The notes beneath the pieces were generated by a model. It saw nothing but the letters and a program-made list of their open reading frames with translations. It ran no database searches and was not told where the DNA came from. Both the position numbers and the translations under genes were made by a program. Below are positions 18,843 through 41,744 of a stretch of 64,000 nucleotides of DNA, piece after piece (the first letter of the stretch is position 1; each line of letters starts with the position of its first letter). The stretch is from an uncultured delta proteobacterium. GTDB taxonomy: Bacteria; Desulfobacterota; Binatia; JACPRU01. Location of the stretch: assembly GCA_963745025.1 (NCBI GenBank), contig CAVUWD010000019.1, positions 224,001-288,000 on the forward strand. The letters run 5' to 3'.

Positions 18843-18986
18843 ATGATCCGCGACGTCCACGTCAGGAAGCTCGCCGTCCACAACGATGACCGAGGCACGT
18901 TGATGGAGGTGCTGCGCGCCGAGGCCCTCCTCTTCGAGAGCACCACCTGGGCCATTCCCGTCGACGAAGAACCGATCGAAGCATGA
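18843..18986 (+). pseudogene. rmlC: Truncated RmlC-like (dTDP-4-dehydrorhamnose 3,5-epimerase) remnant, 47 aa
   Basis: MIRDVHVRKLAVHNDDRGTLMEVLR carries the RmlC N-terminal DxRG motif; lies between rmlA and rmlB and overlaps the rmlB start (ATGA). Confidence 0.7.
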
Positions 18987-19992
18987 AGCTCTGCGTGACG
19001 GGTGGAGCGGGCTTCATCGGCTCGAATTTCGTGCGCTACATGCTCGGTCGCCATGCCGACGTTCAGGTGACGACCCTCGATTGGCTGACGTATGCCGGAA
19101 ACCTCGCAAACCTCGAGTCGGTGCGCGACGATCCGCGCCATCGGTTCGTGCGCGCCGACGTCGCCGATCCCGCGGCCGTCGACGACGCGCTCGACGAGGG
19201 TGTCGACGCGATCGTTCATTTCGCCGCCGAGAGTCACGTCGATCGCTCGATCGGCGATGCCGCCCCGTTCCTTCGCACCAACGTGGCGGGGACCGGCGCG
19301 CTGCTCGAAGCCGCCCGTCGGCGTGGGGTGGCCCGCTTCCTGCACGTCTCCACCGACGAGGTTTACGGCAGCCTCGGGCCCGACGACCGCGCGACGGAGG
19401 ATGCCCCGCTGCGCCCGACGAGCCCGTATGCGGCCAGCAAGGCGGCGTCGGATCTGCTCGCGCTCTCCTACGCGCGGACCTATGGTCTCGACGTCGTCGT
19501 CACGCGTTGCTCGAACAACTTCGGTCCGTTCCAATTTCCCGAGAAGATGATTCCACTGTTCATCACCAACGCGATGGCGGACCAGGCGTTGCCGCTATAT
19601 GGTGACGGCGGAAACGTTCGCGATTGGATCTACGTCGAAGATCACTGCGCGGCGCTCGACCGCGCGCTCGTTCGCGGACGCAGCGGAGAAGTCTACAACA
19701 TCGGCGCGGGAAACGAGTGGACGAACCGCGCGCTCACCGACGAGATTCTTCGCCGCCTCGGCAAGTCGAGCGACCTGGTGCGCTCCGTGGCGGACCGTCC
19801 TGCGCACGACCGCCGCTACGCGCTCGATTCGACGAAATTCCAGCGCGAAACCGGCTGGGCTCCTGCGCACGCGTTTTCGGCGGCGCTCGACCGCACGATC
19901 GACTGGTACCGGCAGAACGAACACTGGTGGCGGACGATCAAGAACGGAGAGTACCAACGCTTCTATCAACTCTGGTATGGAGAGCGCCTGAA

Positions 19993-19996
<4 letters not shown>
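18983..19996 (+). CDS. rmlB: dTDP-glucose 4,6-dehydratase
   Basis: VTGGAGFIGSNF, HFAAESHVDRSI, VSTDEVYG, PYAASK, RCSNNFGP, DRPAHDRRY. Confidence 0.95.
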
Positions 19997-21404
<1,408 letters not shown>

Positions 21405-21423
21405 GCGGTGGGCCCGACGAAGA

Positions 21424-22395
21424 ATGAGATTCTTCATCACCGGCATCTCCGGGTTCGCGGGGTCGCATCTCGCGCGCTTCTTGCTCGACCGCGGGCACGT
21501 CGTCACGGGCGCGGCGCGCGAGCCGGGCTCGTTGGCCGCGCTCCATCGCCGCTACGGCGAGCGGTTCCCGCCGAGCGCCGTGGGTCTCTTTGACATCCGC
21601 GATGGCGCGGCGCTGCGCGCGGCGCTCTCGCGCGCCGAGCCCGACGGCGTCTATCACCTGGCCGCGTTGAGCTTCGTTCCGAGGACCTTCGAGCGCCCCG
21701 AGCTCGCCTACGAGGTCAACTTTCTCGGCTCGATCGAGCTCCTGGCGGCGGTCCGGGACGTCGCCCCCCGCGCGCGTGTGGTGCTCGTGACCTCCGGGGA
21801 AGTCTACGGTTGGATCGATTCCGCGCGGGACCTTCCGCTGGCGGAGAGCCAGCCGCTACGGCCGCTGTCGCCCTACAGCGTGGCGAAGGCGGCGGCGGAT
21901 CTCGCCGGGTTCCAATTCTTCTGGTCCGATTCGCTCGATGTCGTGCGCGCTCGACCGTTCAACCACACGGGACCCGGCCAGACGGCGGAATTCGTCTGCT
22001 CCGAGTTCGCCCGAGCGTTGGCGGCCGCCGAGTCCGGATGCGGCCCGAAGCGGCTGCAGGTCGGGAACTTGGAGGTCGAGCGCGACTTCAGCGACGTCCG
22101 CGACGTGGTGCGCGGCTACCTGTCGCTGTTCGAGAAGGGCAGGGCGGGCGAGGCGTACAATCTCGGCTCGGGCCGAACGACCCGCTTGCGGGCCGTGCTC
22201 GACGAGCTTCGGGCTCAATGCCGCGTTCCCGTCGAGGTGGACGTCGATCCGCAGAAGCTGCGCCCCCGTGAGGTGACTCGCGTGGTCGGCTCGATCGAGA
22301 AAATCGGCCTTGACACGGGTTGGCGGCCCGAAATTCCGCTGCGGCAGACCCTCGCCGATCTGCTGCAGTACTGGCGTCAGGAGCTGAACCGGTGA
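21424..22395 (+). CDS. rmd: GDP-4-dehydro-6-deoxy-D-mannose reductase (GDP-D-rhamnose synthesis), extended SDR
   Basis: ITGISGFAGSHL, HLAALSFVP, YSVAK, RPFNHTGPGQ, VGNLEVERDFSDVRDVVRGY; directly after gmd. Confidence 0.8.
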   Translation: MRFFITGISGFAGSHLARFLLDRGHVVTGAAREPGSLAALHRRYGERFPPSAVGLFDIRDGAALRAALSRAEPDGVYHLAALSFVPRTFERPELAYEVNFLGSIELLAAVRDVAPRARVVLVTSGEVYGWIDSARDLPLAESQPLRPLSPYSVAKAAADLAGFQFFWSDSLDVVRARPFNHTGPGQTAEFVCSEFARALAAAESGCGPKRLQVGNLEVERDFSDVRDVVRGYLSLFEKGRAGEAYNLGSGRTTRLRAVLDELRAQCRVPVEVDVDPQKLRPREVTRVVGSIEKIGLDTGWRPEIPLRQTLADLLQYWRQELNR

Positions 22396-28310: not shown

Positions 28311-28317
28311 TCCCCTG

Positions 28318-29837
28318 TTGACGCAGAGCGGCCCGCCGATTACTGCCGCGGCTGTGCCGCAGAGCGATCCGAGAAACCACTTGCTGTGGCCGCTTCTTGC
28401 GAAGAACCTGGTGCGCGGCAGGGCCGAAGAGACCGCGCTGGCGGCGGGCGAGCGCGCGATCTCGTACGGCGAGCTCGCCGCCGCAGTCCGGCGCGGCGGC
28501 GACGAGATCGACGCGCAGTTCGCAGCGGGTGCACGGGTACTGGTCGCCGCTCGCAATCAGCTTCACGTCGGCGTCGCACTGCTCGCGGCGCTCCAGTCGC
28601 GCGCGACTCCGTTGCTCGCGGACCCGACGTCGGTCGAACGGCTGCGTGGGATCGCTCGCGAGTGGCGACTTTCCGGAGCGATCGGCGAAAGTGAGGTCTT
28701 AGAAGCGACTGGCTTGCCGATCATCGGAACGTCGCGCATCGAATCCTGGCTCGGGGCGGCGCACGGCTCGCCACCAGACCTTCTCCCCCCTGCGGTCGCC
28801 GGCGGCGAGCCCAGTTTCTGGACGTTCACCTCGGGAACGATGGGAGAGCCCAAGGCCGTCGTCCATTCGCATCGCGGGCCGTCGGCCGCTTACGCGGCAT
28901 TCGCTAGCGGGGTCGTCCATCTCGGACCCGAGGATGTGACGATCGCGACTGCGGGGCTGCCGTTCGTCTATGCGCTCGGCAACAACTTCTTCTTCCCGCT
29001 GATGGCGGGCGGCACGGCGGTACTTCCATCGGACCTCCTGCTGCCCACGGTTCTCGGCGAGCTCGCGCGCCATGGTGCCAGCGTGCTCGTCGCCGGCCCG
29101 TGGTCGCTGTCGGGCATCGTGCGCCTGGTGCGGCGTGCGCGGTGGGTCGAGGCGATCCGCCGGTTGCGCTGCGTGCTGTCCGCCGGGGAACCGCTGCCGG
29201 AGCGCGTGTTTCTCGAATGGAGGAAGCGATTCGGCAAGGAAGTGCTCGACAACCTCGGCTGCACGGAGATGTTCAACTCGTTCGTGAGCAACACGATGGG
29301 ACGGGCACGGCCGGGATCGCTCGGGGAAGGGGTCCCCGGCTTCGAGATTCAAGTGGGCGGCGAGCCACCCCTGTCGGGCGCGAAGGGCGAGCTTCGCGTG
29401 CGCGGCGACAGCCGCGCGATCGCCGTCGGCCGCGCGGGGAAGCTGGATCCACCCGAGGGCGAGTGGTGCGATACCGGCGACGAGGTGGAAGTCCGCGACG
29501 ATGGAACGCTCGCGTTCCTGGGTCGTCGGGACGACCGTTTCAAGGTGAAGGGGCAATTCCTTCATCCCGTCGAGGTCGAGCGTTCGCTCGCCGAGGTGCC
29601 GGGCGTCGCGGAGTGCCTCGTCGTGGCCGAGCCCGACGCGGACGGCCTGGCCGTGGTCGTTGCCAAGGTCGTCGCCCACGAAGAAGTCACGGGAGGAAGA
29701 GCTGGTGTGCCGCCTGCTCCGGCATGCGCGTGCCCGGCTCCGAGCCGTTCGCGGTGCCGGAGCGCATCGACGTCGTCGAATCGTTGCCGAGGAGCGAGCG
29801 CGGCAAGCTCGTCCGCCGTGCGGCGGTCGACGGCTGA
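28318..29837 (+). CDS. Benzoate-CoA-ligase-like AMP-dependent ligase; two frameshifts near 29690-29742
   Basis: FTSGTMGEPKAVVHSH, FVYALGNNFFFPL, SAGEPLP, LDNLGCTEMFNSFVSN, TGD, GRRDDRFKVKG; tail LPRSERGKL in a shifted frame; start uncertain. Confidence 0.78.
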
Positions 29838-30202
29838 GCCCGGGGCCTGCTCGTGATGCGAGGCATGGCCAGCGGGCAGCCGGCATTGTCTTTGCCGCCA
29901 CTCTTCTCTGGTCCGCGCTCGCTCGCGCGGCTGGAGCGTACTGGGGCGACGGAAGCGGGAACGGCGGGCTGGCCGGCCCTGAGCGCTCCCCCATCGTTTG
30001 TCTTGGACCGACAACCAGCTGTTCGGCTCGTTCCGCGGCGCCCGTCATGGACCCCATTCTACGGTGGCCCACGCCGCTCGACCTCGCTGATGACGCTGTG
30101 AACGGGCGCCGCGGGACGGAGGATTGCCGCGCTCCGAGAATGAGCATCGACCCCGCGCCCGGCTCTTTACTTGACGGGCCCGCACCGATATCTCCGGCGC
30201 CA

Positions 30203-30883
30203 ATGAAAATCTCCGTGGTCATCCCGGTCTTCAACGAGCGAGACACGATCGCCGAGATCCTGTCTCGAGTCCGCCGCGCCCTCGACGGAAAAGACTCGGA
30301 GCTCGTCGTCGTCGACGACGGCTCGACCGACGGGACGCGCGAAGCGCTCCGCTCGATTGCGGGAATCCGGCTGATCGAGCACGAGCAGAACCAGGGTAAA
30401 GGAGCGGCGTTGCGCACCGGTTTCGCCGCGGCCAACGGCGACGTCGTGATCGTCCAGGACGCCGACCTCGAATACGACCCGCGGGACTATCCGAAGCTCC
30501 TCGAGCCCATCGAAGACGGCCGCGCCGACGTCGTATTCGGCTCGCGCTTTCTCGGCGGCCCGCACCGGGTGCTCTTCTTCTGGCACTACTTGGCGAACAA
30601 GCTGCTCACCTGGCTGTCGAACGTGTTCACGAACCTGAACCTCTCCGACATGGAGACGGGGTACAAGGTCTTTCGCCGCCCGGTGCTCGAGCGTATCCAC
30701 ATCCGCTCCGACCGCTTCAATTTCGAGCCGGAGATCACGGCGAAGGTGGCCAAGACGCGTTGCCGCGTCTACGAGGTGCCGATCTCGTACAGCGGTCGCA
30801 CCTACGACGAGGGCAAGAAGATCGGCTGGCGCGATGGTCTCTCCGCGCTGTGGACGATCATCAAGTTCCGATTCGTGGATTGA
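30203..30883 (+). CDS. GT2 glycosyltransferase (DPM1-like)
   Basis: MKISVVIPVFNE, VDDGSTDGT, NQGKGAA, QDADLEYDP, DMETGYK, FEPEITAK, EGKKIGWRDG. Confidence 0.92.
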   Translation: MKISVVIPVFNERDTIAEILSRVRRALDGKDSELVVVDDGSTDGTREALRSIAGIRLIEHEQNQGKGAALRTGFAAANGDVVIVQDADLEYDPRDYPKLLEPIEDGRADVVFGSRFLGGPHRVLFFWHYLANKLLTWLSNVFTNLNLSDMETGYKVFRRPVLERIHIRSDRFNFEPEITAKVAKTRCRVYEVPISYSGRTYDEGKKIGWRDGLSALWTIIKFRFVD

Positions 30884-31058
30884 GATAGGGCTCGAGCGCG
30901 GCTTGCCAAGGTCTCATGTCGTCGAGACCGAGATGCTCGAGGTGCCGGCGGGCGCCCACCCGAGCTGGCCGCGCGCGCCGGTGGTCATGATCGGCCCCAC
31001 GCGACGAGCCTTAGCGGAACGCCGGCAATCGATGCTACAGGAAGCGTCGTTTGAAGAT

Positions 31059-31309
31059 AATGCCTCAGTCTTTGCCTCCGGCGCTCGAGATCGCGAAGCG
31101 CTGGATTTTCCGGTCGGCCCGTACTCGGGTCGACCGGAAAATCCAGCGACCGCGCGCTAGCGCGGAAGGCAATCGACCAACTCGCGGGTTATTGCCTTCC
31201 GCGCTTCGCGCGGTTGCGGTTGGTTGTGATCGACCCGAGTACGGGCCGATCACAACCAACCGCGCTCTCAGGTTCCGAAGCGCTTGAGGCGAAGACCGAG
31301 GCGCTCCCT
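31059..31309. mobile_element. Three-hairpin non-autonomous repeat element, copy B
   Basis: Core 31098-31269; outer inverted repeat GCCTCAGTCTTTGCCTC/GAGGCGAAGACCGAGGC; TTTGAAGAT direct repeats at 31050 and 31310. Confidence 0.85.
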
Positions 31310-31310
31310 T

Positions 31311-32396
31311 TTGAAGATCCTCCACGTCGATCCCGAGACCTCCTTTGGCGGCGGGGAGCGCCAAGTCGCGGGATTGATCCGCCATCTTGCGAAGCGCGGT
31401 CACGAGAGCATTCTCGCCGCCCCCGCCGAGTCGCGGCTCGCCGCGATCGTTCCCGCTGCGGATGCGCGTCTGCGGCCGCTCGCGATTCGGAGCGACATCG
31501 ATCTGGTCGCGGCTCTCCGGCTGCGGCGGCTGGCTGCGGTCGAGAGCCCGCACATCGTTCATTTCCACACGTCTCGGGCGCACGCGATGAGCCCCTGGCT
31601 TCGGCGGTATGCCGGGCGAGCGATCGTGACTCGGCGCATGGATTATCCGCTCCACCCGGGGCCCTGGACGAACCTTCTCTACAACCGGTCGGTCGCGGCC
31701 GTGGTTGCGATCTCCGAAGAGGTGCGCCGCCGCCTGCTCGCTGCCGGAGTGCGCTCGGAGCGCGTTCGCGTCATCCACAGCGCGGTCGAGCCACCGGCAG
31801 GTTTGCCCGGCCGCGCGGGCCGTGCGGCCGCCCGCAAGCGCTTCGGCATCGACGACGAGCTGGCGATCGGCGTCGTCGCGGCGCTCGAACGACGCAAGGG
31901 ACACGACGTGCTCTTCCGTGCCCTCGCGCGCCTCGCGCCAGCGGGCGGGCTGCGGTTTTGCTGCGTGGTCTGCGGTGCTGGCTCGGAGCGGGCGGCCCTG
32001 GAGCGCCTCGCCCGAGAGCTCGGCATCGCGGGCTCCGTGCGCTTTCTCGGCGAGCAGCGGCAGGTCGCCGACGTGCTCGCCGCGCTGGACGTCTTCGTGC
32101 TGCCCTCCCGTCACGAAGGGCTCGGCGTGGCCGTCCTCGAGGCCATGGCGGCGGCCCTGCCGGTCGTCGCCTCCGCCGTGGGCGGCATCCCAGAAGCCGT
32201 CGCGGCCGGCCGCACGGGTCTTCTCGTCCGTGCCGAAGATCCCGACGCGCTCGCGGCGGCGATCGTTGAGCTCGGTCGGGACCGCGAGCGTGCCCGCCGC
32301 CTGGGCTCCGCGGGCCGCGATCGAGTGCTCGCGGAGTTCTCGATGGAGGTGATGGCGAGCCGCTACGAGCGCCTCTATGACGAGGTGAGCAGCTGA
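31311..32396 (+). CDS. GT4 glycosyltransferase
   Basis: MKILHVD...GGGERQ, RKGHDVL, FVLPSRHEGLGVAVLEAMAA.PVVASAVGGIPE. Confidence 0.92.
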   Translation: MKILHVDPETSFGGGERQVAGLIRHLAKRGHESILAAPAESRLAAIVPAADARLRPLAIRSDIDLVAALRLRRLAAVESPHIVHFHTSRAHAMSPWLRRYAGRAIVTRRMDYPLHPGPWTNLLYNRSVAAVVAISEEVRRRLLAAGVRSERVRVIHSAVEPPAGLPGRAGRAAARKRFGIDDELAIGVVAALERRKGHDVLFRALARLAPAGGLRFCCVVCGAGSERAALERLARELGIAGSVRFLGEQRQVADVLAALDVFVLPSRHEGLGVAVLEAMAAALPVVASAVGGIPEAVAAGRTGLLVRAEDPDALAAAIVELGRDRERARRLGSAGRDRVLAEFSMEVMASRYERLYDEVSS

Positions 32397-32444
32397 TCCG
32401 AGCCGGTTGCGTGCCTTTCCGGCATGAGAGATAACGGGCGCTCC

Positions 32445-32720
32445 ATGGACCGCGACGAGATCAAGCGCAGCCTCAAGCGACTGCTGATCGACGGGCTTCG
32501 CCTGCAGGGCCTTCGCGCCGACGACATCGAAGAAGCCGCGCCGATCTTCGTCGAAGGGCTCGGCCTCGATTCCGTCGATGCGCTCGAGTTCGTCGTGCTG
32601 GTCGAAGAGAAGTTCAACATCCAGATCCCCGACGAGGACGTCGGCAAGCGGGCCTTCGCCTCGATCGAGGCGCTGACCGATTACGTGTCTGCGGAGCTCT
32701 CTCGGGTTAATGGAACGTGA
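32445..32720 (+). CDS. Acyl carrier protein (aryl-polyene-type signature)
   Basis: PIFVEGLGLDSVDALE with phosphopantetheine Ser; C-terminal FASIEALTDYV. Confidence 0.92.
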   Translation: MDRDEIKRSLKRLLIDGLRLQGLRADDIEEAAPIFVEGLGLDSVDALEFVVLVEEKFNIQIPDEDVGKRAFASIEALTDYVSAELSRVNGT

Positions 32721-32917
32721 ACGCGGATCGAGCTGAGGGGCACGCGGCACGGTTTCTCGACCGTGGTGTGCTCCGCCCACAGCTCATCCGCTCGCACGCG
32801 GATGGATCCGCCAATGGCGGCTCATCCGTTGCGGCCTCGACACGGCTTCGACCGCTGCTGTCGGAGCGAAGAAGCGTCCACCTGCAACGAGTCTCCGAAA
32901 ACCGGTAGTCTCGGTGC

Positions 32918-34132
32918 ATGCGTCGCGTGGTGATCACCGGCATTGGCAGCTGGAACGGCTTCGGCGCCGGAGTGCCGGCGTTCCTCGATGCGCTGCGCGC
33001 AGGGGCGTGCGCGATCGGTCAGATGACCGTGTTCTCGACCGAGGGGTTTCGCACGCACCGCGCGGCAGTCGCGCCGGCCGCGAATGTAGGCGGCTGGGTG
33101 TCCACGCCGCTCGAGTTCCGGTTGTCGCGTTCCGACCGAATGGCCGTGGCGGCGGCGCGTGAGGCCTGGCTCGCCTCGGGGATTGCGGAAGCCGGGCTCG
33201 CAAGCGAGCGGATCGGAGTCGTCATGGGAGGGACCACCGGCGGGATGCTCGAGGCCGAGGACATTCTTCGCCGTCGCCAGTCGGGCGAGCTCGAGCGCAT
33301 GCCGGTGCGCGGTCTGGTGGCGATGCCGGTCTGCTCCACGGCGGACGTACTGGCCGCCGTGTTCGGCTGCGGGGGCCCGCGGTTCACCGTCGTGACCGCG
33401 TGCTCGTCGAGCGCCAACTCGCTCGGGCTCGCGGCCGATCTCGTCCAGGAAGGGCGTGCCGACGCGTTGCTCGCCGGTGGGACCGATGCGCACTGCAAGA
33501 TGACGTACGCGGGCTTCAATGCTCTGCAGGCGCTCGCTCCGGACGTGTGCCGCCCGTTCGATCGGCGCCGCGCCGGACTCTCGCTCGGCGAGGGGGCGGC
33601 GATGTTCGTGCTCGAGGAGGAACGACACGCGCGCCGGCGCGGAGCGGACATCCTGGCGGAGTTCGCCGGGTATGGCACCAGCGCCGATGCGCACCACATG
33701 ACGGCTCCGGACCCCGAGGGTCGGGGCGCGGTCGCGGCGATGCGGCGGGCTCTTGCGGAGGCCCGTCTCGCGCCGGAAGCGATCGATTACGTCAACGCGC
33801 ACGGCACGGGAACTCCACAAAACGATCCGATCGAGACGCGCGCGATCAAGGCCGTGTTCGGAGCCCACGCGCGGCGATTGGCCGTCAGTTCCACGAAGTC
33901 GCAGACCGGCCACTGCCTCGGCGCGGCCGGCGCGATCGAGATCCTCGCGACCGTGCTCGCGCTGCGCCACGGCTTTCTGCCGCCGACCGTCAACCTCGAA
34001 GAGCCCGATCCGGAGTGCGATCTCGACTATGTCCCGCGCCTCGCGCGTGCGCGTGATCTGCGCGCGGCCATGTCCAACTCGTACGGCTTCGGCGGCAACA
34101 ACACGAGCGTCGTGCTGAAGGCGTATTCATGA
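32918..34132 (+). CDS. Beta-ketoacyl-ACP synthase (active KS, FabF/type II PKS-like)
   Basis: Catalytic Cys in TACSSS, NAHGTGT, STKSQTGHCLGAAG, SNSYGFGG. Confidence 0.93.
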   Translation: MRRVVITGIGSWNGFGAGVPAFLDALRAGACAIGQMTVFSTEGFRTHRAAVAPAANVGGWVSTPLEFRLSRSDRMAVAAAREAWLASGIAEAGLASERIGVVMGGTTGGMLEAEDILRRRQSGELERMPVRGLVAMPVCSTADVLAAVFGCGGPRFTVVTACSSSANSLGLAADLVQEGRADALLAGGTDAHCKMTYAGFNALQALAPDVCRPFDRRRAGLSLGEGAAMFVLEEERHARRRGADILAEFAGYGTSADAHHMTAPDPEGRGAVAAMRRALAEARLAPEAIDYVNAHGTGTPQNDPIETRAIKAVFGAHARRLAVSSTKSQTGHCLGAAGAIEILATVLALRHGFLPPTVNLEEPDPECDLDYVPRLARARDLRAAMSNSYGFGGNNTSVVLKAYS

Positions 34133-35328
34133 GCGAGGCGGTGATCTCCGGCATCGGCGTGGTGAGCCCGCTCGGCATCGGTGCGACGGCCTTCTGGGAC
34201 GCGCTCTGCTCGGGCCGGACGGCGATCGCAGAGATCCGCCGATTCGACCCCGGTCCGACGCCGCCCCGCCTGGCCGCCGAGGTGCGCGAGATTCCGGCCC
34301 GCGACGTTTTCCCCGCGGCTCTGGTCCGCCGCATGGATCGTGTCTCGCAAATGATCGGCGCCGCCGCCGTGCTGGCGGTGCGCGACGCCTGCCTCGGGCG
34401 GAGCGCGCCCGACGACGATCTGGCCGTCGTCGTCGGCTCGTCGCTCGGCAACCTCGGCGAGGCGGCGCAGTTTCTCGAGCGCGTCTTCACCAAGGGACCG
34501 TCACTTGCCAGCCCGATGTTGTTTCCGAACCTGGTGATGAACGCGCCCGCGAGCCAGGTGGCGATGGCGCTCGGCTGGCACGGACCCAACCTGACCGTGT
34601 CTGCGGGTGAGATTTCGGGGGAGAGCGCCCTCGACGTGGCGATCGATCTTCTGCGCCGCGGCAGGGCGCGAGCCGTCGTGGTGGCGGCGGGCGAAGAGCT
34701 TTCGGCGGTGCTCTTCCGGGCGCTCCGGGACTTTCGGCATCTCTCGCCGCGCCGCCGCGGACGCGAGCGCTCGAGCCCCTTCGACGTCGAAGCCAACGGA
34801 CCGGTGCTCGGCGAAGGGGCTGCGGCCGTCGTCGTCGAGACGCCGGAGTCGGCGACGCGTCGCGGCGCCCGCGTGCACGCGACCATCGAGCGGATGATTC
34901 GCTTTCAGCTCGCCGTGAAGAATCCCCACGTCTGGCCCGCTCCGGGTGCAGCGCTGGAAACCGGTGATCTGCCGACGCTCTCCGCCGACCTCGTCTTTTC
35001 CGGCGCGGATTCCTCTCCCGAGCGCGACCCGCTCGAGCTCACGCTGCTCGCGCGGATGGTGCCGGCCGACCCGCCGGTGTACTCGCTGGCCGGAGCGGTC
35101 GGCAGTCACGCGGCGCAGGGGCTCACGACCCTGTCCGCGGCGGCGCTCGCGCTGTCTTCCGGAAGCCTCCCGCCGGTTGTCGGTCTCGAGCGACCGCGTC
35201 CGGAGTTTCCGTTCCACTTTCCGAAGGAGGCGCTCTCGGGTTCGTGGGCGAGCGGCTTGGTGCTCGGCGTGGCGCGCGGCGGGGCGGGGATGGCGATCGG
35301 GATCACCCGCGAGGCGCGGAGACCGTGA
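34129..35328 (+). CDS. Catalytically incomplete KS homologue (chain-length-factor-like)
   Basis: KS fold N-terminus (GIGVVSPLG, RRMDR, SPMLFPNLVMNAPA, GEGAAAVV), but VSAGEISG has Glu at the Cys position and HGTGT is absent. Confidence 0.82.
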   Translation: MSEAVISGIGVVSPLGIGATAFWDALCSGRTAIAEIRRFDPGPTPPRLAAEVREIPARDVFPAALVRRMDRVSQMIGAAAVLAVRDACLGRSAPDDDLAVVVGSSLGNLGEAAQFLERVFTKGPSLASPMLFPNLVMNAPASQVAMALGWHGPNLTVSAGEISGESALDVAIDLLRRGRARAVVVAAGEELSAVLFRALRDFRHLSPRRRGRERSSPFDVEANGPVLGEGAAAVVVETPESATRRGARVHATIERMIRFQLAVKNPHVWPAPGAALETGDLPTLSADLVFSGADSSPERDPLELTLLARMVPADPPVYSLAGAVGSHAAQGLTTLSAAALALSSGSLPPVVGLERPRPEFPFHFPKEALSGSWASGLVLGVARGGAGMAIGITREARRP

Positions 35329-35975
35329 GCGCGCGGCGAGGTCGATTCCCAGTGCTGCTGGTGCGGGCGCTCTTCGTTCCGGTCATCTGCTCCGCTGCGG
35401 CGACGACTCCCGAGGTCGTCGAGAGGCTCCGGGAGCTCGGTCGTGCGAGCGCGGCCGTCACCACGCTGCGCGCGCATTTCGTGCAGGAAAAGCACGTGAC
35501 GATCGTCCGCGACGTGCTGCGTTCGTCCGGAACGTTCTTGCTCGACAAGCGCGGCCGCATCGCCTGGGAGGTCGCCGAGCCGGATGCCGTGCGCATCGTC
35601 ATCCGCGAAGACGGGGTGTTCGCTGCCGGCAAGCGCGTGGGGGCGGAAGCGCAGGGGCGAAGCGGCGAGAGCGCTACGAATGCCAAGCTCTCGCCGCTGC
35701 CGATGCTCGAGGGCCTGAACGGGATCTTCGCCGGCGTGTCGGAAGAGACGGCGCGGGACTTCGAGGTGACGTTCCGCGACCGCGATCGTCTGCGCCTCGT
35801 GCCCCGCGCGCGCTCGCTTTCGGCCTGGCTCTCCGCGATCGAGATCACGCTCGGCGGCGAGGCGCAGACACCGCAGCGCGTCCGGCTCGAGGAGCCGGGC
35901 GGCGACGTGACGGAGATCACGTTCAGCGACGTGACGGTGAATCCGTCGCTCGACGACGCGGCCTTCGCGCCATGA
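35325..35975 (+). CDS. LolA-like outer-membrane carrier protein
   Basis: Signal peptide, LRAHFVQEKH...SSGTF...IAWE..EP, EPGGDVTEITFSDVTVNPSLDDAAF. Confidence 0.8.
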   Translation: MSARRGRFPVLLVRALFVPVICSAAATTPEVVERLRELGRASAAVTTLRAHFVQEKHVTIVRDVLRSSGTFLLDKRGRIAWEVAEPDAVRIVIREDGVFAAGKRVGAEAQGRSGESATNAKLSPLPMLEGLNGIFAGVSEETARDFEVTFRDRDRLRLVPRARSLSAWLSAIEITLGGEAQTPQRVRLEEPGGDVTEITFSDVTVNPSLDDAAFAP

Positions 35976-36697
35976 CGCGGCCGGGGCGCCTCGCGCTGGC
36001 TCTCGGCCTCCTCGCCGCGCTCGGCTGCCACCGAACGGCCCGCCCGCCGGCGCCCGGCGAGACGGTCGTCAGCGACGCGCAGGCAATCGCCGTGGTCGCG
36101 CGCCGCGAGGCCGAGACGCCGACGATGACCGCGACCTTCCAGCTCACCGTGCACCGGCCGGATGGCAGCGAGGAAGGCAGCCGGGGAGCGGTCGTGGTCA
36201 CTCGACCGGATCGGCTGCGCCTGCAGATCTTCTCCTTCGGCGTGATGACGTCCTACGACTACACCGTGAACGGCAACCGCTACCGAGTGCGCCGGCCGCT
36301 CGACGGCAGCGAAACGATCGGCCGTTTCGACGATGCGGAAGCCTCCGAGACCGGCGCATTCGGCCCGGACCTCCGACCGCTGTTTCTACCCGCTGCGGCG
36401 GCCGGCTCGGCGAGCGCGCGCGACGCCGGTGATCACTTCGTGGTGGCGGTCGCCGAGCAGCGGGGGCGAAGGGAGATCGACGTGTCGAAGCGCGATGGCT
36501 CGGTCACGCGCGAAGCCCTCTATCAGGACGCCGGGCCCCGCGTCGTCATCGACTACGGCGACTACCGGTTCGTCGACGGCGCCGCCCTCCCCTTCGTCGT
36601 CGAAGTGACCTACCCGCAGACGAGCTTGCGACTGACGATTCGCGTCGCGCACTATACGCGAAATCAGCCCGTCGATCCGCATCTGTTCGAGTTCTGA
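35972..36697 (+). CDS. Lipoprotein, LolB/DUF4292-like fold
   Basis: Lipobox LAALGC; RPDRLRLQIFSFG; IDYGDYR..DG..LP; C-terminal NQPVDPHLFEF. Confidence 0.6.
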   Translation: MTRPGRLALALGLLAALGCHRTARPPAPGETVVSDAQAIAVVARREAETPTMTATFQLTVHRPDGSEEGSRGAVVVTRPDRLRLQIFSFGVMTSYDYTVNGNRYRVRRPLDGSETIGRFDDAEASETGAFGPDLRPLFLPAAAAGSASARDAGDHFVVAVAEQRGRREIDVSKRDGSVTREALYQDAGPRVVIDYGDYRFVDGAALPFVVEVTYPQTSLRLTIRVAHYTRNQPVDPHLFEF

Positions 36698-39213
36698 TGG
36701 AGCGGCGGTTCCCTTACGACCGGCTGGTTGCGGCCGTCGACCGCCGTCATCGGGCGATCCTGCTGGTCGCGGCCGGCTTGCTTGTGGCTTCCGGTCTGTC
36801 GCTGCTCCGGCTCCGCCTCGACATGGACGTGCTCTCGCAGCTCCCGTCGCGCTCGCCGGTCTTCCGCGATTACCGCGAATTTCTACAGACGTCCGGCGTT
36901 TTCGACAGCCTCGTCGTGCTGGTGACGGGCGAGCGCGACTCCATCGTGTCGTTCGCCGAGGCGCTGGCGGAGAAGCTCGCGCGGAGTCCTGACATCGGCT
37001 CGGTTCGTTACCGCATCGATCTCGACGACGTGCGGCGGCGCTTCCTCGTGCCGTTCCGTTACGAGCTCCTGAGCGACGACGACCTCGAAGAGCTCGCCCG
37101 TCGGCTCGAGCCCGCCGCGATCGAGGCGCGCGTGCGGAACCTGAGGCGCGCATTGGCGATGCCGATGAGTCTCGGCGCCCGGCGTTGGATCCTCGAGGAC
37201 CCGCTCGGAGACGAAGAGCTGGTCGGGCGCTCGATCGAGCGCCGCTACGCCGATCCCCTGTTTCGTCCGTCGAGCGAGAACTTCCTGGCGCCGGGGGGCG
37301 ATGCGCTTCTCCTCGTGGTGCGGCCGGTGGGATCGGCCTTCGATACGATCTTCGCCGAGCGGCTGCTCACGGAGGTGAAGAGCGCCGAAGCGGAGCTCCT
37401 CGCGGACCGCTTTCGGACGAGCGGCGTGCGTGTGGGCCACACGGGCAGCTACGTTTATGCCCTCGCCGACAAGCAAGTGCTGCAGAGCGACCTGCGCATC
37501 TATTTTCTGTTCGCGCCGCTCGCCGTGCTGATGATTTTTCACCTCGGCCTACGGACGCTCCGCATCCTGCCGTTCGTGACCTTTCCCTTGCTGGTGACGA
37601 CCGCGGTGACGTTCGCGCTGTCTCTCGCCTTCTTCCGCAGCCTGAACATGATCTCGATCGCGTTCGCGGGCATCTTCTACGGGCTCGGCATCGACTCGGC
37701 CATCTATTTCTACAGCCTGCTGCGGGATAAGGCCGCCGCGCGGGGAGACCTCGACCGCGGAGTGGTGCGACTCCTGGTCACGGAGACGCTGAGCGAGATC
37801 GGCCTGGCCAACGTCGTCGCATCGACGACCACCGCGGTTGCCTTTCTCGTCGTCGGATTCTCCGACTTCTCCGGCGTGAGCCAGCTCGGCATCTTGACGG
37901 CGCTGGCGATGCTCCTGAACGTGGTCGCGACGTTCGTCCTCTTGCCGGCGATGGTGTTCGCCTGGGGGCCGCGCGCGATTCCCGTACAGCCTGCGCGGCC
38001 GAGCCGCTTTGCGGCGGGCTGCGCTCGCGCAAGCGCCCGACTGGCCGAGCGGCGAACCGCCGTGCTCGTGCTGTCGGCGGTCGTGGTCGGCGCCGCGGGT
38101 CTCGCGCTCCCGCGCGTGCGCTTGGACACCGATTTCACGCACCTCAGGCCCGGCGGCGGCGAGGCGGAACGGGTCGAACGGATGATTCACGACAAGTTCG
38201 GCCACGTAGCCGCGCAGGGAGTCGCGCTGGTGCACGCACCGGACGTCGATGGCTGCTTGCGTACCACGGAGCAGTTGGCTGCGGCGCTCGACCGCTACCG
38301 GGAGCAGGGGCTCGTGGCGTCGTACTCGTCGCTCTCGGCATTTTTTCCCTCCGCGGAAAACGCCTCGCGACGACTGGCGCGTTTTCGTTCGCTCCCCCGA
38401 GCGCGGGCGGCAGAAGCGCTGCGGCGCTCGCTCGGCGAAGCGGGCTTCGATCCCGCCGCGTTCTCGGGCTTCTTGGAGGATCTCGTCCGCGACGAGCGGC
38501 CGCGCATCACGGTCGAGGCACAGAGCGAGGGCCCGCTCGCGGGTCTCCTCGAGCAGCATCTGCGGCGCTCCGCGCAAGGATTCGTGGTCTCGACGTATTT
38601 CGTTCCCGCCGCAGGCGTGTCGATTGCGACGATCCGCGACCGGCTCCGTGTCGACCTGCCGGGCGTGCCGCTGACCGTGACCGGGCGCGAGCTGGCCGAA
38701 GCCGAGTTCGCCCGTCTGCTCGAGCGCGAGCTCGCGTGGTTTCTCGGCGGCGCGCTGCTGCTGAATCTGCTGCTCGTCTTCGCCGCCGAGCGGCGGATCG
38801 TCACGACGCTCGCGTTGCTCTCACCGACGCTCACCGCCCTCGTTCTCTACCTCGGCCTGATCGGCGCATTCGGCGTGGCGATCGATCCGATCAATTTGGT
38901 CGTCTTGCCGTTGCTGATCGGCCTCGGCGTCGACGACAGCGTGTACCTCGTCGCTCACATGCGCTACGGCGGCGGCTTGGTGCCGGGCGTCCGACGGGGC
39001 GCGACGCCGCTCCTCCTCGCCGTCGCCACCACGGTTGCGGGATTCGGTTCGCTCGGCCTGTCGCGGTTTCCGGCGCTGCGCCGGCTGGGGTGGCTGGCGG
39101 CGCTCGGCCTTTCGCTTTGCATGGCCGCGAGCCTGCTGCTCGTTCCGGCGCTGGCGCGTGCGCTGGTTGGCCGGGAACGGGCGACTCCGATAGCATCCAA
39201 CGAGCGCCGATGA
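36697..39213 (+). CDS. MMPL/RND-family lipid exporter
   Basis: Two TM bundles with GLGIDSAI and GLGVDDSV, TTAVAF/TTVAGFGSL, and two large extracytoplasmic domains. Confidence 0.9.
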   Translation: MERRFPYDRLVAAVDRRHRAILLVAAGLLVASGLSLLRLRLDMDVLSQLPSRSPVFRDYREFLQTSGVFDSLVVLVTGERDSIVSFAEALAEKLARSPDIGSVRYRIDLDDVRRRFLVPFRYELLSDDDLEELARRLEPAAIEARVRNLRRALAMPMSLGARRWILEDPLGDEELVGRSIERRYADPLFRPSSENFLAPGGDALLLVVRPVGSAFDTIFAERLLTEVKSAEAELLADRFRTSGVRVGHTGSYVYALADKQVLQSDLRIYFLFAPLAVLMIFHLGLRTLRILPFVTFPLLVTTAVTFALSLAFFRSLNMISIAFAGIFYGLGIDSAIYFYSLLRDKAAARGDLDRGVVRLLVTETLSEIGLANVVASTTTAVAFLVVGFSDFSGVSQLGILTALAMLLNVVATFVLLPAMVFAWGPRAIPVQPARPSRFAAGCARASARLAERRTAVLVLSAVVVGAAGLALPRVRLDTDFTHLRPGGGEAERVERMIHDKFGHVAAQGVALVHAPDVDGCLRTTEQLAAALDRYREQGLVASYSSLSAFFPSAENASRRLARFRSLPRARAAEALRRSLGEAGFDPAAFSGFLEDLVRDERPRITVEAQSEGPLAGLLEQHLRRSAQGFVVSTYFVPAAGVSIATIRDRLRVDLPGVPLTVTGRELAEAEFARLLERELAWFLGGALLLNLLLVFAAERRIVTTLALLSPTLTALVLYLGLIGAFGVAIDPINLVVLPLLIGLGVDDSVYLVAHMRYGGGLVPGVRRGATPLLLAVATTVAGFGSLGLSRFPALRRLGWLAALGLSLCMAASLLLVPALARALVGRERATPIASNERR

Positions 39214-40076
39214 CCCCGATCTCGAACGCGCTGACGATTGACGTCGAGGACTGGTATCACGATGCCGACGGGCTCGGCGGCTCGGAAACGCCGGATCCCG
39301 AGCCGCGCGTCGAGCGCAACGTCCATCGTCTTCTCGATCTGCTCGATCGACAGGGCGTGCGCGCCACGCTCTTCGTCCTCGGCGAGGTCGCCGAGCGCTC
39401 TCCGGCGCTCGTCCGCGAGGCGTTCGCTCGGGGTCACGAAATCGCCAGCCACGGGTATCGCCATCGGCCGATCGGCACGTGGCTGCGGCGCGAGTTCCGT
39501 GACGACGTCGAGCGCTCGCTCGCGCTGCTCCAAGATGTTACCGGAGCCCCCGTGCGCGGCTATCGAGCGCCGTATTTCTCGATCCGGGCGGACGTCCATT
39601 GGCCGGGCGACGTGCTGGCGGAGCTCGGAATCGCCTACGACTCGAGCGTGCTGCCGATCGATCGCGCCCCCGGCCTCGAGCTGGTTTCGCCGCGCGCTCC
39701 GTATCGCCTCGGCAGCGGCGTGTGGGAAGTGCCGGTGGCCATCAACCGGTACCTCTTCTGGAATCTGCCGCTGCTCGGCGGCTTTGCGCTGCGCATGCTG
39801 TCGCTCGGCTTCGTCGAGAGGCGGCTGGCCGAGTTCAATCGCGAGGTCGGTCCGGCGGTGGTTCACCTTCATCCGTGGGAGATCGACGCGATGGGGCCCG
39901 AAGCGCGGTCGATCTCCGTCGTCGTCCGCGGCCTGAAGCGGGTCGGTCGGAGCGGTCTCGCGACGAAGCTCGAGCGACTGTTCGGCGCTCACTCCTTCGG
40001 CTCGATCGCGGCGGTGTTTCCCGAAGTGGGCGGCGCCTCCGTCGCGAGGGAGCGCCACGACAAGCCTTCGACGTAG
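39210..40076 (+). CDS. Polysaccharide deacetylase (DUF3473/PEP-CTERM-locus type)
   Basis: NALTIDVEDWYH, ATLFVLG, GHEIASHGYRH, GYRAPYFS, YDSS, HLHPWEID. Confidence 0.88.
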   Translation: MTPISNALTIDVEDWYHDADGLGGSETPDPEPRVERNVHRLLDLLDRQGVRATLFVLGEVAERSPALVREAFARGHEIASHGYRHRPIGTWLRREFRDDVERSLALLQDVTGAPVRGYRAPYFSIRADVHWPGDVLAELGIAYDSSVLPIDRAPGLELVSPRAPYRLGSGVWEVPVAINRYLFWNLPLLGGFALRMLSLGFVERRLAEFNREVGPAVVHLHPWEIDAMGPEARSISVVVRGLKRVGRSGLATKLERLFGAHSFGSIAAVFPEVGGASVARERHDKPST

Positions 40077-41014
40077 AGCACGGCCAGACCGACGAGGATC
40101 CACAGCGTCTCGCGCACGCGCACGACGAGCCCGACGACGAGCCCGAGAGACGCGCTGCCTCCCGCGAGCGTGAGCACGCCGACCTCGGTCGCCTCGAGCG
40201 AACCGATCGCTGCCGGAATCGGCAAGAGCTGGGCGATTCCCATGCCGACCATCACGCCGAGCAGGGTGGAGGGCGAGATCGGCAACGCGAAGGCGGCGGT
40301 GAGCGTCCAGAGCTCGGCGATGATGAGCCCTTCGGCGAGGAACGAAAGGGCGAGCGCGACGAGAAAGCTCCGCGTGCGCAGGAATTCCGTGAGCTGCCGG
40401 TCGATCGACTCGAGCGAGCCGCGAGCCCGCGGGAAGAAGCCGCGGCGGGTGAGGAGCAAAATCACCGTGCCCCTCCGGTAGGAGAGCAGATAGAAGCCCG
40501 CTAGCGCCACGAAACAGGCGATCATCCCGCCCACTACCCAGGGTGCCGCCCAGGCGGAACCGTCGTTGGCGAGAAAGAACACCACGACGTAAGTCGGACC
40601 GAGAATGGAGCTCGCCGTCAGGTCGAGCATGCGGTCCATGGCGACGCTCGCGATCGCCCGCGTCCACCCGTGCCGGCGCCGGCGCAGCAGAAAGGCTCGC
40701 ATCGGCTCGCCGCTCAGATGGGCCGAGGGGAGAAGCGTGCTCACCGCGTGCTCGGCGGCGCGGAAGCCGAGGAGCGTGTGGATCGCGGGTGGCGGCCGGG
40801 CGCCGCCCATCGCCACGAGGACGATGCTCCAGCGCTTCGCGTAGGTGAGGAAGACGGCCGCGCTGAGCGCGAGGAAAACCACGAATCGCCAGGGATCGGC
40901 GCGCCCGACAGCCTGGCCGAGCTCGCTGAGACCGAGATGTTGGCAGAGGAGGACGAAGAGGGCCAGGCCGGCGACGAGGAAAACGATGCGCAACGGCTGG
41001 AGGGGACGCTTCAC
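39989..41014 (-). CDS. Lysylphosphatidylglycerol-synthase TM / UPF0104 flippase-like membrane protein
   Basis: RW..VL, LLPSAHLSGEPMRAFLL, DRMLD, PIPAAIGSLEA; about 8 TM segments. Confidence 0.8.
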   Translation of the reverse strand: MKRPLQPLRIVFLVAGLALFVLLCQHLGLSELGQAVGRADPWRFVVFLALSAAVFLTYAKRWSIVLVAMGGARPPPAIHTLLGFRAAEHAVSTLLPSAHLSGEPMRAFLLRRRRHGWTRAIASVAMDRMLDLTASSILGPTYVVVFFLANDGSAWAAPWVVGGMIACFVALAGFYLLSYRRGTVILLLTRRGFFPRARGSLESIDRQLTEFLRTRSFLVALALSFLAEGLIIAELWTLTAAFALPISPSTLLGVMVGMGIAQLLPIPAAIGSLEATEVGVLTLAGGSASLGLVVGLVVRVRETLWILVGLAVLYVEGLSWRSLATEAPPTSGNTAAIEPKE

Positions 41015-41087: not shown

Positions 41088-41684
41088 TCATCCCTGCTGG
41101 ACGCCCTCGACGTCGATCTCGATCGTCACGTCGTCGCCGACGAGCAGGCCGCCGCTTTCCAGAGCCTTGTTCCAGGTGAGGCCGAAGTCCTTGCGGTTGA
41201 TCGTGGTCGTGCCGTGGAATCCGGCGCGCTCGTGGCCTCCCGGGTCCTTGCCTTTGCCGAGGAAGCTCGCGTCGAGGACGACGGGCCGCGACACGCCGTG
41301 GAGCGTCAGAGTGCCTTGCATCTTGCCCTTCTTGCCGGTCGAGTCGAGGTCGGTCACGCCCGTGCTCTCAAACGTGACCTTGGGAAACTTGGCCACGTCG
41401 AAGAAGTCGGCCGAGCGCAGGTGGTCGTCGCGCTTCTTGACGTTGGTGTTGATGGTCGCGGCGTCGATCGAGCCCTCGACGCGGGTTTTCGCCGGCTCCT
41501 TCTCGTCGAAGGTGATCTTGCCGTCGAAATTCTCGAAGCGGCCGGCCACCGTGGTGAAGAGGTGCCGGATGCGAAACACCACCGACGTGTGGGCGGGATC
41601 GACGTCGTAGACCTCCGCGAGCGACGTCGATGCCCAAAGCAAGGTAACCGCCACTGCAAACCACGGCTTGGTTCGATCCATCAT
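41088..41684 (-). CDS. YceI-family lipid/polyisoprenoid-binding protein
   Basis: Signal peptide, YDVDPAHTSVVF.IRH, RDDHLRSADFFDV.KFP, INRKDFGL; GGAGG RBS. Confidence 0.93.
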   Translation of the reverse strand: MMDRTKPWFAVAVTLLWASTSLAEVYDVDPAHTSVVFRIRHLFTTVAGRFENFDGKITFDEKEPAKTRVEGSIDAATINTNVKKRDDHLRSADFFDVAKFPKVTFESTGVTDLDSTGKKGKMQGTLTLHGVSRPVVLDASFLGKGKDPGGHERAGFHGTTTINRKDFGLTWNKALESGGLLVGDDVTIEIDVEGVQQG

Positions 41685-41744
41685 CGATCCTCCCTTCTCA
41701 CTCAGGGAGGCACAGCCAAGCACAGAGACGACGACAACGAAAGT

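Follow-up and report, generated by a model that had tools for sequence, protein, structure and literature searches.

Here we report that a gene cluster at positions 28318-41014 of a 64-kb stretch of DNA (G000:C19:224001-288000, ~68% G+C; hereafter the window) from an uncultured member of the Binatia probably makes an undescribed envelope glycolipid. The cluster encodes a ligase resembling benzoate-CoA ligases, two glycosyltransferases (GT2 and GT4), an acyl carrier protein (ACP), a ketosynthase (KS) with a predicted inactive partner (chain-length factor, CLF), a LolA-like protein, a lipoprotein, an MMPL exporter, a deacetylase and a flippase-like protein. Our favored interpretation is that it represents a reduced, family-restricted variant of the aryl polyene (APE) or aryl polyene lipid (APEL) type of envelope-lipid pathway, joined to an amino-sugar synthase-deacetylase-flippase module. 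We put the probability of this reading at about 0.5. Genomes, contigs and related loci are numbered below with G, C and L.

Gene organization of the cluster

Genes were picked by third-position G+C and six-frame reading, and families were assigned by Pfam and NCBIfam scans. The open reading frames (ORFs) of the cluster and the gene next to it are as follows.

28318..29837, plus strand: ligase, benzoate-CoA-ligase-like (AMP-binding, 3.1e-38)
30206..30883, plus strand: GT2, 225 aa (Glycos_transf_2, 5.4e-41)
31284..32396, plus strand: GT4 (Glycos_transf_1, 5.7e-40, and Glyco_transf_4)
32424..32720, plus strand: ACP with the motif GLGLDSVDALE (PP-binding, 7.2e-9)
32918..34132, plus strand: KS, active-type (both KS domains)
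34129..35328, plus strand: CLF, a Cys-less KS partner of 399 aa (N-terminal KS domain only)
~35328..35975, plus strand: LolA-like protein (LolA, 1.3e-11; the ORF opens at 35244 and the likely start is near 35328)
35972..36697, plus strand: lipoprotein with a predicted LolA/LolB fold (lipobox LGC, Cys19)
36697..39213, plus strand: MMPL/RND exporter (MMPL, 7.5e-13)
39210..40076, plus strand: CE4/DUF3473 deacetylase, in the frame of ORF 38736-40076 (Polysacc_deac_1, 1.3e-21; DUF3473, 1.2e-19)
39989..41014, minus strand: LPG_synthase_TM protein, MprF-flippase-like and HpnL-like (PF03706, 1.1e-28 over 341 aa)
41088..41723, minus strand: YceI-like periplasmic protein, a possible accessory (YceI, 9.7e-53)

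The GT2 starts with MKISVVIP at 30206, rather than with the long ORF that opens at 29660. Further downstream, the CLF start overlaps the KS stop, the lipoprotein gene shares an ATGA with the upstream LolA-like gene and a TGATG with the downstream MMPL gene, and the deacetylase gene overlaps the MMPL gene by ATGA. Since the genes from the KS to the deacetylase are all joined by ATGA or TGATG overlaps, we read them as one translationally coupled operon. The flippase-like gene is convergent with this operon and overlaps its end by 88 bases. ORF 39238-39936 was considered as a gene and rejected, as it is a wrong frame of the deacetylase. All the genes that the initial annotation of this block had listed are present.

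The KS groups with ApeO and probably pairs with an inactive partner

The KS keeps Cys162, His295, His332 and Lys327, while the CLF has Glu161, Gly292, Ser326 and Ala321 at these catalytic positions. Glu161 of the CLF is invariant in an alignment of 19 homologues. By its sequence, the CLF is thus predicted to be a full-length, catalytically dead KS partner, and the two proteins would act as a heterodimer.

We compared the cluster by blastp with the ape cluster of E. coli CFT073 (L041:33728-48749). The KS is 35% identical to ApeO and 33% to ApeR. In a 35-row KS/CLF tree from a quick search, the KS falls into a 13-row clade with E. coli ApeO (SH-aLRT 100), with ApeO on a long branch; this clade excludes ApeR and the FabF-like genes of the genome itself, and the CLFs make up a separate one. 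Outside references in this tree were limited to ApeO and ApeR of E. coli and to the KS genes of the genome itself, and it held no flexirubin, xanthomonadin, dialkylresorcinol, aromatic polyketide synthase (PKS) or anammox sequences. Of the pair for which the initial annotation had called for a phylogeny, the KS goes with ApeO; the CLF is not of the APE type.

The ACP is 38% identical to E. coli ApeE (1e-13) and matches ApeF only at 4e-4. It scores 63.6 bits with PRK09184, for which the cut-off is 70. No second copy of it was found in the genome by tblastn.

The best family models of the KS are those of FabF (TIGR03150, 413 bits; PRK07314, 397 bits against a cut-off of 387). The best PDB matches of the KS and the CLF are two chains of one entry, 9s5h_B (336.9 bits, 1.6e-99) and 9s5h_C (154.9 bits, 3e-44), respectively. 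FabF structures come next for both proteins, and the actinorhodin KS/CLF scores lower. PDB 9s5h (9s5h/9s5i) is probably the anammox amxFabF2/amxFabFmut heterodimer of 10.64898/2026.05.19.726425, judging from the molecule names, the pair of chains and the Val aligned at the Glu161 position; the code does not occur in the main text of that paper, and a full-text search for it led to unrelated papers only. The dead subunit amxFabFmut has Val or Thr at the Cys position (bioRxiv 10.64898/2026.05.19.726425).

Like the cluster described here, the anammox "Cluster I" places an active FabF-like subunit and a full-length dead partner side by side with a dedicated ACP. It differs in the residue of the dead subunit (Val/Thr, against Glu in the window CLF) and in gene order, which is reversed, with the mut gene upstream. 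Cluster I also has FabZ, a phytoene-dehydrogenase homologue and a B12 radical-SAM protein, none of which is in the window block, and lacks the ligase, the glycosyltransferases and the LolA/MMPL genes, all of which are. The CLF of aromatic type II PKS systems has Gln at the active-site Cys position. The window CLF has Glu161 instead of this Gln, and the block contains no cyclase or aromatase domains, unlike such a minimal system.

The export genes are arranged as in APE clusters

The LolA-like protein matches LolA2_flexi at 5.8e-20 (71.5 bits against a cut-off of 125) and is 22% identical to ApeL. The MMPL protein is 21% identical to ApeM (5e-11), and its match to HpnN (TIGR03480, 1.8e-49) is below the cut-off.

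The lipoprotein lies between the two, and its lipobox Cys19 is invariant in 8 homologues. Its sequence gives weak signals, to DUF4292 and LolB1. A structural model built on eight homologues (predicted local distance difference test, pLDDT, 77.9; predicted template-modelling score, pTM, 0.73) was searched with Foldseek and matched LolA3 of P. gingivalis (9tp6; 7.6e-10, TM 0.66) and other LolA superfamily proteins, as well as LolB chains at TMt 0.68-0.72. In an Atlas search, DUF4292 clusters accounted for 9 of 30 matches. The model suggests that this lipoprotein may serve as the outer-membrane acceptor.

Together, the LolA-like protein, the lipoprotein of probable LolB fold and the MMPL protein reproduce the ApeL/ApeN/ApeM arrangement, and by analogy with APE clusters they would serve in export. 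ApeM, ApeL and ApeN have been proposed to move the APE lipid to the outer membrane (10.1101/2020.12.19.423268).

The likeness to the APE cluster (apeA-R) extends to a dedicated ACP, an ApeO-clade KS with an inactive partner, a GT2, and an export set of LolA-like protein, MMPL/RND pump and LolB-like lipoprotein whose order, LolA-MMPL/lipoprotein, is shared. It also extends to the product, since the known product of the APE cluster is likewise an amino-sugar glycolipid of the outer membrane (10.1101/2020.12.19.423268): the APE lipid of Xenorhabdus doucetiae consists of an APE esterified to N-acetylgalactosamine (GalNAc)-phosphate-glycerol with two acyl chains (10.1101/2020.12.19.423268). The APE product being already a glycolipid, a sugar-bearing product is to be expected from this kind of cluster. 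The initial annotation had proposed an aryl- or acyl-capped lipid that is glycosylated. The glycosylation genes for it are there, but the paradigm is not new, as it is known from APE-GalNAc-phosphate-glycerol.

There are also differences. ApeQ (ketoreductase, KR), ApeI and ApeP (dehydratases, DH), ApeR (second KS), ApeK (thioesterase), ApeB (methyltransferase), ApeD (acyltransferase), ApeG and the second ACP have no counterpart in the block. ApeC has only 240 aa, and the full-length CLF of 399 aa would be a functional analogue only. The ligase resembles benzoate-CoA ligases rather than ApeH, the GT2 lacks the C-terminal half of ApeJ, and the window adds a GT4, a CE4 deacetylase and an LPG_synthase_TM protein.

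A proposed amino-sugar module

The closest NCBIfam models of the GT2 are AglJ, PpgS, dolichyl-P hexose transferase and ArnC, with AglJ, PpgS and ArnC below their cut-offs. The protein is 27% identical to the N-terminal half of ApeJ, and 87-96% identical in relatives. The best NCBIfam match of the GT4 is stp2, at 178.7 bits against a cut-off of 409. The deacetylase weakly matches ArnD (8e-4), and the flippase-like protein scores 50 bits with TIGR00374, above the cut-off of 43.2.

In Pseudomonas aeruginosa, GpgSDF makes glucosaminyl (GlcN)-phosphatidylglycerol, and GpgS is a GT4 (PMC12713373); HexSDF makes an aminohexosyl glycolipid in Clostridioides difficile (PMC10128005). In both systems, a glycosyltransferase adds an N-acetyl-hexosamine to a lipid and a deacetylase frees the amine, with an MprF-flippase-like partner (COG0392/LPG_synthase_TM) (PMC12713373; PMC10128005). 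The window has a deacetylase as well, and its flippase-like protein lacks a synthase domain, as in these systems. HexD is annotated as a polysaccharide deacetylase (PMC10128005), like the window CE4 protein. The GT4, the CE4 deacetylase and the LPG_synthase_TM protein may thus repeat the same synthase-deacetylase-flippase logic, by which we mean that they would work alike and not that they belong to these systems. In the window, the three genes of the triad are split around the ACP-KS-CLF and export genes.

Two paralogues of the GT2, each 61% identical, were seen elsewhere in the genome. One, on C8:250582-254570 (L039:9582-13570), lies directly upstream of a PMT_2 gene (glycosyltransferase of the GT-C type). 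The other, on C16:221985-225679 (L037:985-4679), carries a fused methyltransferase domain; another LPG_synthase_TM gene is 1 kb away, and the cluster around it also has an epimerase and PAP2.

Features of the ligase favor an aryl starter

The best PDB matches of the ligase are benzoate-CoA ligases (4e-48), and all seven of its PDB matches at <=1e-25 are benzoate- or anthranilate-CoA ligases. BadA (PDB 4eat; TIGR02262) stands for the best family and solved structures for ligase residues 153-452, a stretch that takes in the core and some of the C-terminal subdomain. Among NCBIfam models, those of benzoate ligases score highest, followed by 3-hydroxybenzoate (HbdA) and 4-hydroxybenzoate (FadD22) ligases. 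In addition, a ligase orthologue in L024 (54% identical) adjoins a flavin halogenase and lies near methyltransferases, and the clusters of L018 and L030 also carry flavin halogenases. The ligase families, the structures and the context in L024 favor an aryl starter without proving it. From its gene context, the ligase would load the ACP rather than CoA.

The reduced gene set is conserved within one family

With the CLF as the query, 8000 candidates were scored, of which 543 proteins reached E <= 0.001. The best 50 homologues among the matches listed are 53-100% identical and come nearly all from metagenomes. Related loci were found in 31 cases in species-representative genomes. Four of these (L001, L002, L003 and L017; CLF 61-86% identical) have the same order from the ligase to the flippase-like gene, namely ligase, GT2, GT4, ACP, KS, CLF, LolA-like protein, lipoprotein, MMPL and CE4, with amino-acid identities of 53-96% for the genes; the convergent flippase-like gene is kept in L001, L003 and L017. 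The YceI gene is present in L003 and L017 and not in L001 (two of the three close relatives with DNA there).

Every gene has a dN/dS (Nei-Gojobori) of 0.12-0.44 against L001 and L002. These values are rough, with a dS of 0.56-1.1 in a high-G+C genome, and the comparison with L003 is unreliable for GT4, KS and CLF because of frameshift errors in L003. They indicate that all the genes are likely to be under purifying selection. The synteny in relatives that the initial annotation had called for is thus borne out for the stripped-down set.

We then surveyed 301 genomes drawn from the class, including the unpublished G182, G212, G207 and G086, none of which belongs to the window's family. A CLF of at least 63% identity occurs only in the window's family, in four of its seven other sampled genomes (G019, G001, G037 and G055), which are probably the same genomes as those of the four close loci. 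Completeness is 65-84% for the three members of the family that lack such a CLF, and in genomes of other families the best CLF match is 41-49% identical. A literature search on Binatia and such clusters listed no description of one, and we do not claim that none is in print; Binatota are mentioned, together with arylpolyene and ladderane counts, in two of the papers listed.

Distant relatives hold larger clusters

The 27 more distant loci (CLF 36-44% identical) have larger clusters. Pfam scans covered 68 ORFs in five of these loci and 18 in L024. FabG lies directly upstream of ACP-KS-CLF in L004, L005, L018 and L030, and in L015 the LolA-like and lipoprotein genes are separated by a FabA-like gene. 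A B12 radical-SAM protein and a second KS/CLF pair are found in L005 and L015; in L004 the B12 radical-SAM protein is present, and the contig opens with just the end of a second CLF. The distant clusters also carry a PaaK/ApeH-type ligase, ICMT and an LpxL-like acyltransferase. A CE4 gene, with or without the flippase-like gene, stands beside the KS/CLF in at least 10 of the 27 loci, which is an undercount because many of the loci are incomplete.

The larger Binatia-type clusters (L004, L005, L013, L015, L018 and L030) share an orthologous core with the window (KS 55-61%, CLF 40-44% identical). In some loci the LolA-like, lipoprotein and MMPL genes follow this core, and in several CE4 and LPG_synthase_TM genes lie beside it, but the GT2, GT4 and benzoate-type ligase of the window are absent from them at tblastn 1e-8. 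As the distant relatives hold larger clusters, with FabG, the FabA-like gene, the B12 radical-SAM protein and the second KS/CLF, the window type appears to be a reduced offshoot, in which tailoring genes would have been swapped for the GT2, the GT4 and the benzoate-type ligase.

In L005, L015, L004 and L013, the larger clusters, with two KS/CLF pairs, a B12 radical-SAM protein, FabG and an ACP, continue into a deacetylase gene, a flippase-like gene, ICMT and another radical-SAM gene. By content these clusters are "ladderane-like", and they come from non-anammox organisms.

Search for the missing functions elsewhere in the genome

The relatives' FabA-like protein matches only the housekeeping fabZ, in the bamA-skp-fabZ-lpxA region, and their FabG matches 59-62 generic short-chain dehydrogenases/reductases (SDRs) at <=45% identity. 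ApeI and ApeP have no tblastn match in the genome, and ApeQ matches only generic SDRs, at <=41% identity and on other contigs. The dedicated fabG/fabZ paralogues that the initial annotation hoped to locate were therefore not found genome-wide. Each of the other four KS loci was rejected as a partner cluster, as none qualifies: a lone KS (C16), acpP-KS (C6), a 2886-aa type I PKS (C12) and SDR-KS-FabH (C2). The type I PKS lies at C12:45388-54048 on the minus strand (L034:1889-10549) and has the architecture KS-AT-DH-MT-ER-KR-ACP-TE.

B12 radical-SAM genes occur alone at C19:175435, ~48 kb upstream of the window start (64% identical to that of the relatives), and beside an LPG_synthase_TM paralogue at C16:566335 (68% identical). 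An operon at C13:411700-415600 (L042:7708-11576) encodes an LpxL-like protein, a B12 radical-SAM protein, a PlsC-type acyltransferase and a GT2. The PlsC-type acyltransferase and this GT2 are the closest counterparts in the genome of E. coli ApeD (23%) and ApeJ (40%), respectively, and the operon is possibly the best candidate for the absent module of acyl transfer and attachment. Of the earlier description of the system as "stripped-down or split", the first word holds. A split finds no support for KR and DH, and at most some for the attachment enzymes, from the C13 operon; the scattered B12 radical-SAM genes are the only other separate parts found.

Proposed pathway

We propose a model for the product of this cluster, drawn from family resemblance and gene order. 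The ligase would adenylate an aromatic (or other) carboxylic acid and load it onto the dedicated ACP, and the KS with its dead CLF would extend this starter by malonyl units. The beta-keto groups may then be processed in trans by the housekeeping FabG and FabZ, or be left unreduced after one or a few rounds, because neither the cluster nor the genome has a dedicated KR or DH. By analogy with GpgSDF/HexSDF, the GT4 and GT2 would build an N-acetyl-hexosamine head group, the CE4 protein would deacetylate it to a free amine, and the LPG_synthase_TM protein would flip the lipid. The MMPL, LolA-like and LolB-fold proteins would carry the finished lipid to the outer membrane, a role suggested by APE clusters. 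The acyl transfer between chain and head group would be encoded outside the block, most plausibly by the ApeD/ApeJ-like operon on C13.

Several observations weigh against this model. First, Pfam and NCBIfam find no KR, DH, acyltransferase, thioesterase, methyltransferase or ammonia-lyase domain in 28318-41014, a lack already noted for KR, DH, acyltransferase and ammonia lyase in the initial annotation, and no dedicated KR or DH was found elsewhere in a genome that is 92.65% complete. Without KR and DH, a conjugated polyene, the defining chemistry of APE, is not predicted. Second, some of the counterparts do not match by blastp: the CLF gives no match to ApeC at 1e-3, the lipoprotein none to ApeN (nor is it a DUF3261 protein), and the ligase none to ApeH, so that it is not of the ApeH type. 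Third, the ligase scores below the cut-offs of all its top NCBIfam models, with 209.8 bits for TIGR02262 (cut-off 375.25) over residues 158-455 only, a score somewhat lowered by the frameshifted query, and its first ~150 residues match no solved structure. Nor did a search for the source of an aryl acid succeed: a chorismate lyase did not turn up, although at 92.65% genome completeness its absence is unproven, and the sole gene of the aromatic ammonia-lyase family lies far away (C16:24935) and may be HutH. Fourth, the sugar module is distant from its models. The GT4 scores 70.6 bits with the N-acetylglucosamine (GlcNAc)-PG synthase model NF053787 (cut-off 480), the deacetylase scores 216 bits with TIGR03006 (cut-off 276) and reaches no equivalog cut-off, and GpgD is COG3233 (PMC12713373), a family different from the CE4+DUF3473 deacetylase of the window. 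Finally, the GT2, the CE4 protein and the flippase could be used otherwise, to make a polyprenyl-phosphate amino-sugar donor.

Alternative interpretations

One alternative, rather improbable but to be taken seriously, is a special fatty-acid pathway, in which the ligase activates a fatty or other aliphatic acid, the ACP and KS/CLF elongate the chain with the housekeeping FabG, FabZ and FabI, and the unusual chain is placed on an amino-sugar lipid. Special acyl chains are made with these housekeeping enzymes by the NodF/NodE and AcpXL/FabF-XL systems. A cluster that has no KR or DH and is yet conserved and selected fits the use of type II fatty-acid synthesis enzymes in trans. The KS scores highest against FabF models, and its best solved relative is a KS/CLF pair of the fatty-acid type, probably the anammox one. 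The ligase also matches models of long-chain fatty-acid ligases (for example NF004837, 118 bits), and no aryl-acid source was found. However, the best families of the ligase and all seven of its closer PDB matches are aromatic-acid ligases, flavin halogenases, which are typical of aryl tailoring, accompany the L024 orthologue and the clusters of L018 and L030, and the KS groups with ApeO and not with the genome's own FabF-like genes.

Another interpretation, to which we give somewhat less credit, is that two separate systems lie side by side. The GT2, the CE4 protein and the flippase, with a GT-C protein encoded elsewhere, would make a polyprenyl-phosphate amino sugar in the manner of ArnC/ArnD/ArnT or PpgS, which would decorate lipopolysaccharide or another glycan, and ACP-KS-CLF-LolA-MMPL would make another lipid. 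The GT2 indeed has polyprenyl-phosphate sugar synthases as its best models, and its paralogues lie directly upstream of the PMT_2 GT-C gene on C8 and 1 kb from the LPG_synthase_TM gene on C16. A PMT_2 GT-C gene is also found directly upstream of the ligase in L003, and the CE4 protein has its weak match to ArnD. Against this, no GT-C gene is present in the window cluster, L017 or L002, the deacetylase is translationally coupled to the MMPL gene, the GT4 directly precedes the ACP, and at least 10 of the 27 distant loci too combine this KS/CLF family with a CE4 gene, either alone or together with the flippase-like gene.

It is tempting to speculate that the product is an aryl-beta-keto(poly)ketide with one or a few unreduced extensions, joined to the CE4-freed amine of a hexosamine lipid. 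This would be an undescribed class of outer-membrane lipids, and the idea is a long shot. If it were true, the conserved Glu of the CLF and the absent acyltransferase would point to a new mode of off-loading.

The block is preceded by genes for surface glycans, which are present as the initial annotation had described them (sugar-nucleotide, ABC-transporter and lptD genes; Pfam).

14586..17954, upstream of the block: lptD
18983..22395, upstream of the block: three genes for NDP-sugar dehydratases/epimerase

The other upstream genes are a GT2, an ABC-2 permease, an ABC ATPase, a methyltransferase and a 548-aa glycosyltransferase. The glycan and lipid gene sets are contiguous on the same strand, only 217 bases apart (28101-28318), and the initial annotation had considered the lipid as an anchor or decoration of the exported glycan. 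That the lipid anchors or caps the polysaccharide exported by the adjacent wzm/wzt ABC transporter is, however, very improbable. Three close relatives have 3.1-4.1 kb of DNA upstream of the ligase, and none of them carries the wzt, methyltransferase or 548-aa glycosyltransferase gene there (tblastn 1e-8), so that this linkage is not kept; instead, L003 has its PMT_2 gene at this place and L017 a different GT4. The right flank, in contrast, is conserved among close relatives: L003 and L017 have YceI and DUF5666, and hemE follows at a greater distance in L001 and L003. The cluster also has its own exporter. Judged from these gene neighborhoods, a tie to the neighboring glycan exporter appears unsupported.

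The LptD homologue is unusually long (1122 aa). LptC/LptA-like segments precede its LptD barrel, and its first ~320 residues have no Pfam match at 1e-4.

Significance of the reduced cluster

Few bacterial gene cluster families are as widespread as those of the aryl-polyene type, and to our knowledge there is only one organism in which the complete products are established. The variant described here is maintained in a lineage that is uncultured and lives in sediment and soil. It retains the ACP, the KS/CLF pair and the genes for export to the outer membrane; all reductive and tailoring enzymes are gone, and a putative amino-sugar module has been added. If the cluster is expressed, it could define how few genes suffice for an exported lipid of this kind, tell whether such a pathway can draw on the housekeeping enzymes of fatty-acid synthesis, and reveal envelope lipids of Binatia-type bacteria. 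The cluster is thus relevant to lipid biochemistry and to the annotation of "arylpolyene/ladderane" calls in metagenomes, and it involves no new principle.

Assembly errors and a lost rmlD-like gene

The C-terminus of the ligase matches the intact orthologues of L002 and L003 only when three frames of the window are combined, with indels at ~29691-29694 and 29740. We compared positions 29300-30400 of the window with Logan contigs from four runs of four studies. In all four runs, the contigs have two more bases at 29691-29694 and one base less at 29740, which restores a single ligase ORF, and two of these contigs otherwise differ from the window by 0 or 1 letter. One RNA run contained only 0.06 of the sampled words. 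The two apparent frameshifts are assembly errors. Scattered single-base errors are therefore probable elsewhere in the assembly.

The genes trpB (10200-11394) and gmd (20199-21404) are likewise split over two frames, probably also by assembly errors. The contigs of two of the runs (X2 and X3) have an extra C at 30196, 10 bases upstream of the GT2 start, which may be another assembly error or a strain difference. The contig depth at 30299-30335 jumps more than 50-fold in all four runs, with many loose ends; this spike is a GT2 motif common to many organisms in the samples and no feature of this genome.

Two further elements lie between the GT2 and GT4 genes.

30864..30971, minus strand: rmlD-like remnant, the last 37 residues (tblastn with L002 RmlD)
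31060..31270, strand not assigned: repeat of ~200 bp resembling repetitive extragenic palindromes or miniature inverted-repeat transposable elements (REP/MITE-like; blastn against the genome)

In all four close relatives (L001, L002, L003 and L017), a whole rmlD-like gene lies on the minus strand at this place, and that of L002 matches RmlD_sub_bind at 1.5e-89. The window retains only a remnant adjoining the repeat (C19:254864-254971), with 68% identity to residues 256-292 of L002 RmlD, and a 39% identical rmlD paralogue persists on contig C2. The gene has been lost in this genome, and the repeat element is at its place. With positions 30884-31283 as the query, blastn gave 211 pieces genome-wide, with up to 90% identity over ~207 bases. 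ORF 30834-31160 was rejected as a gene, its 3' part being the ~200-bp genome-wide repeat.

The idea that the cluster is a decaying remnant of a larger one and makes no product any more, which the missing KR, DH, radical-SAM and second KS/CLF genes of the distant relatives, the loss of rmlD to the repeat element and the ligase frameshifts might suggest, can hardly be maintained, since the frameshifts arose in the assembly, every gene has a dN/dS of 0.12-0.44, the catalytic residues are retained and the same reduced set is found in five species-level genomes.

Copies of the ~200-bp repeat lie at 25201-25391, 31060-31270, 49545-49737 and 51191-51377 of the window. The repeat is intergenic and partly self-complementary, with self-matches on both strands.

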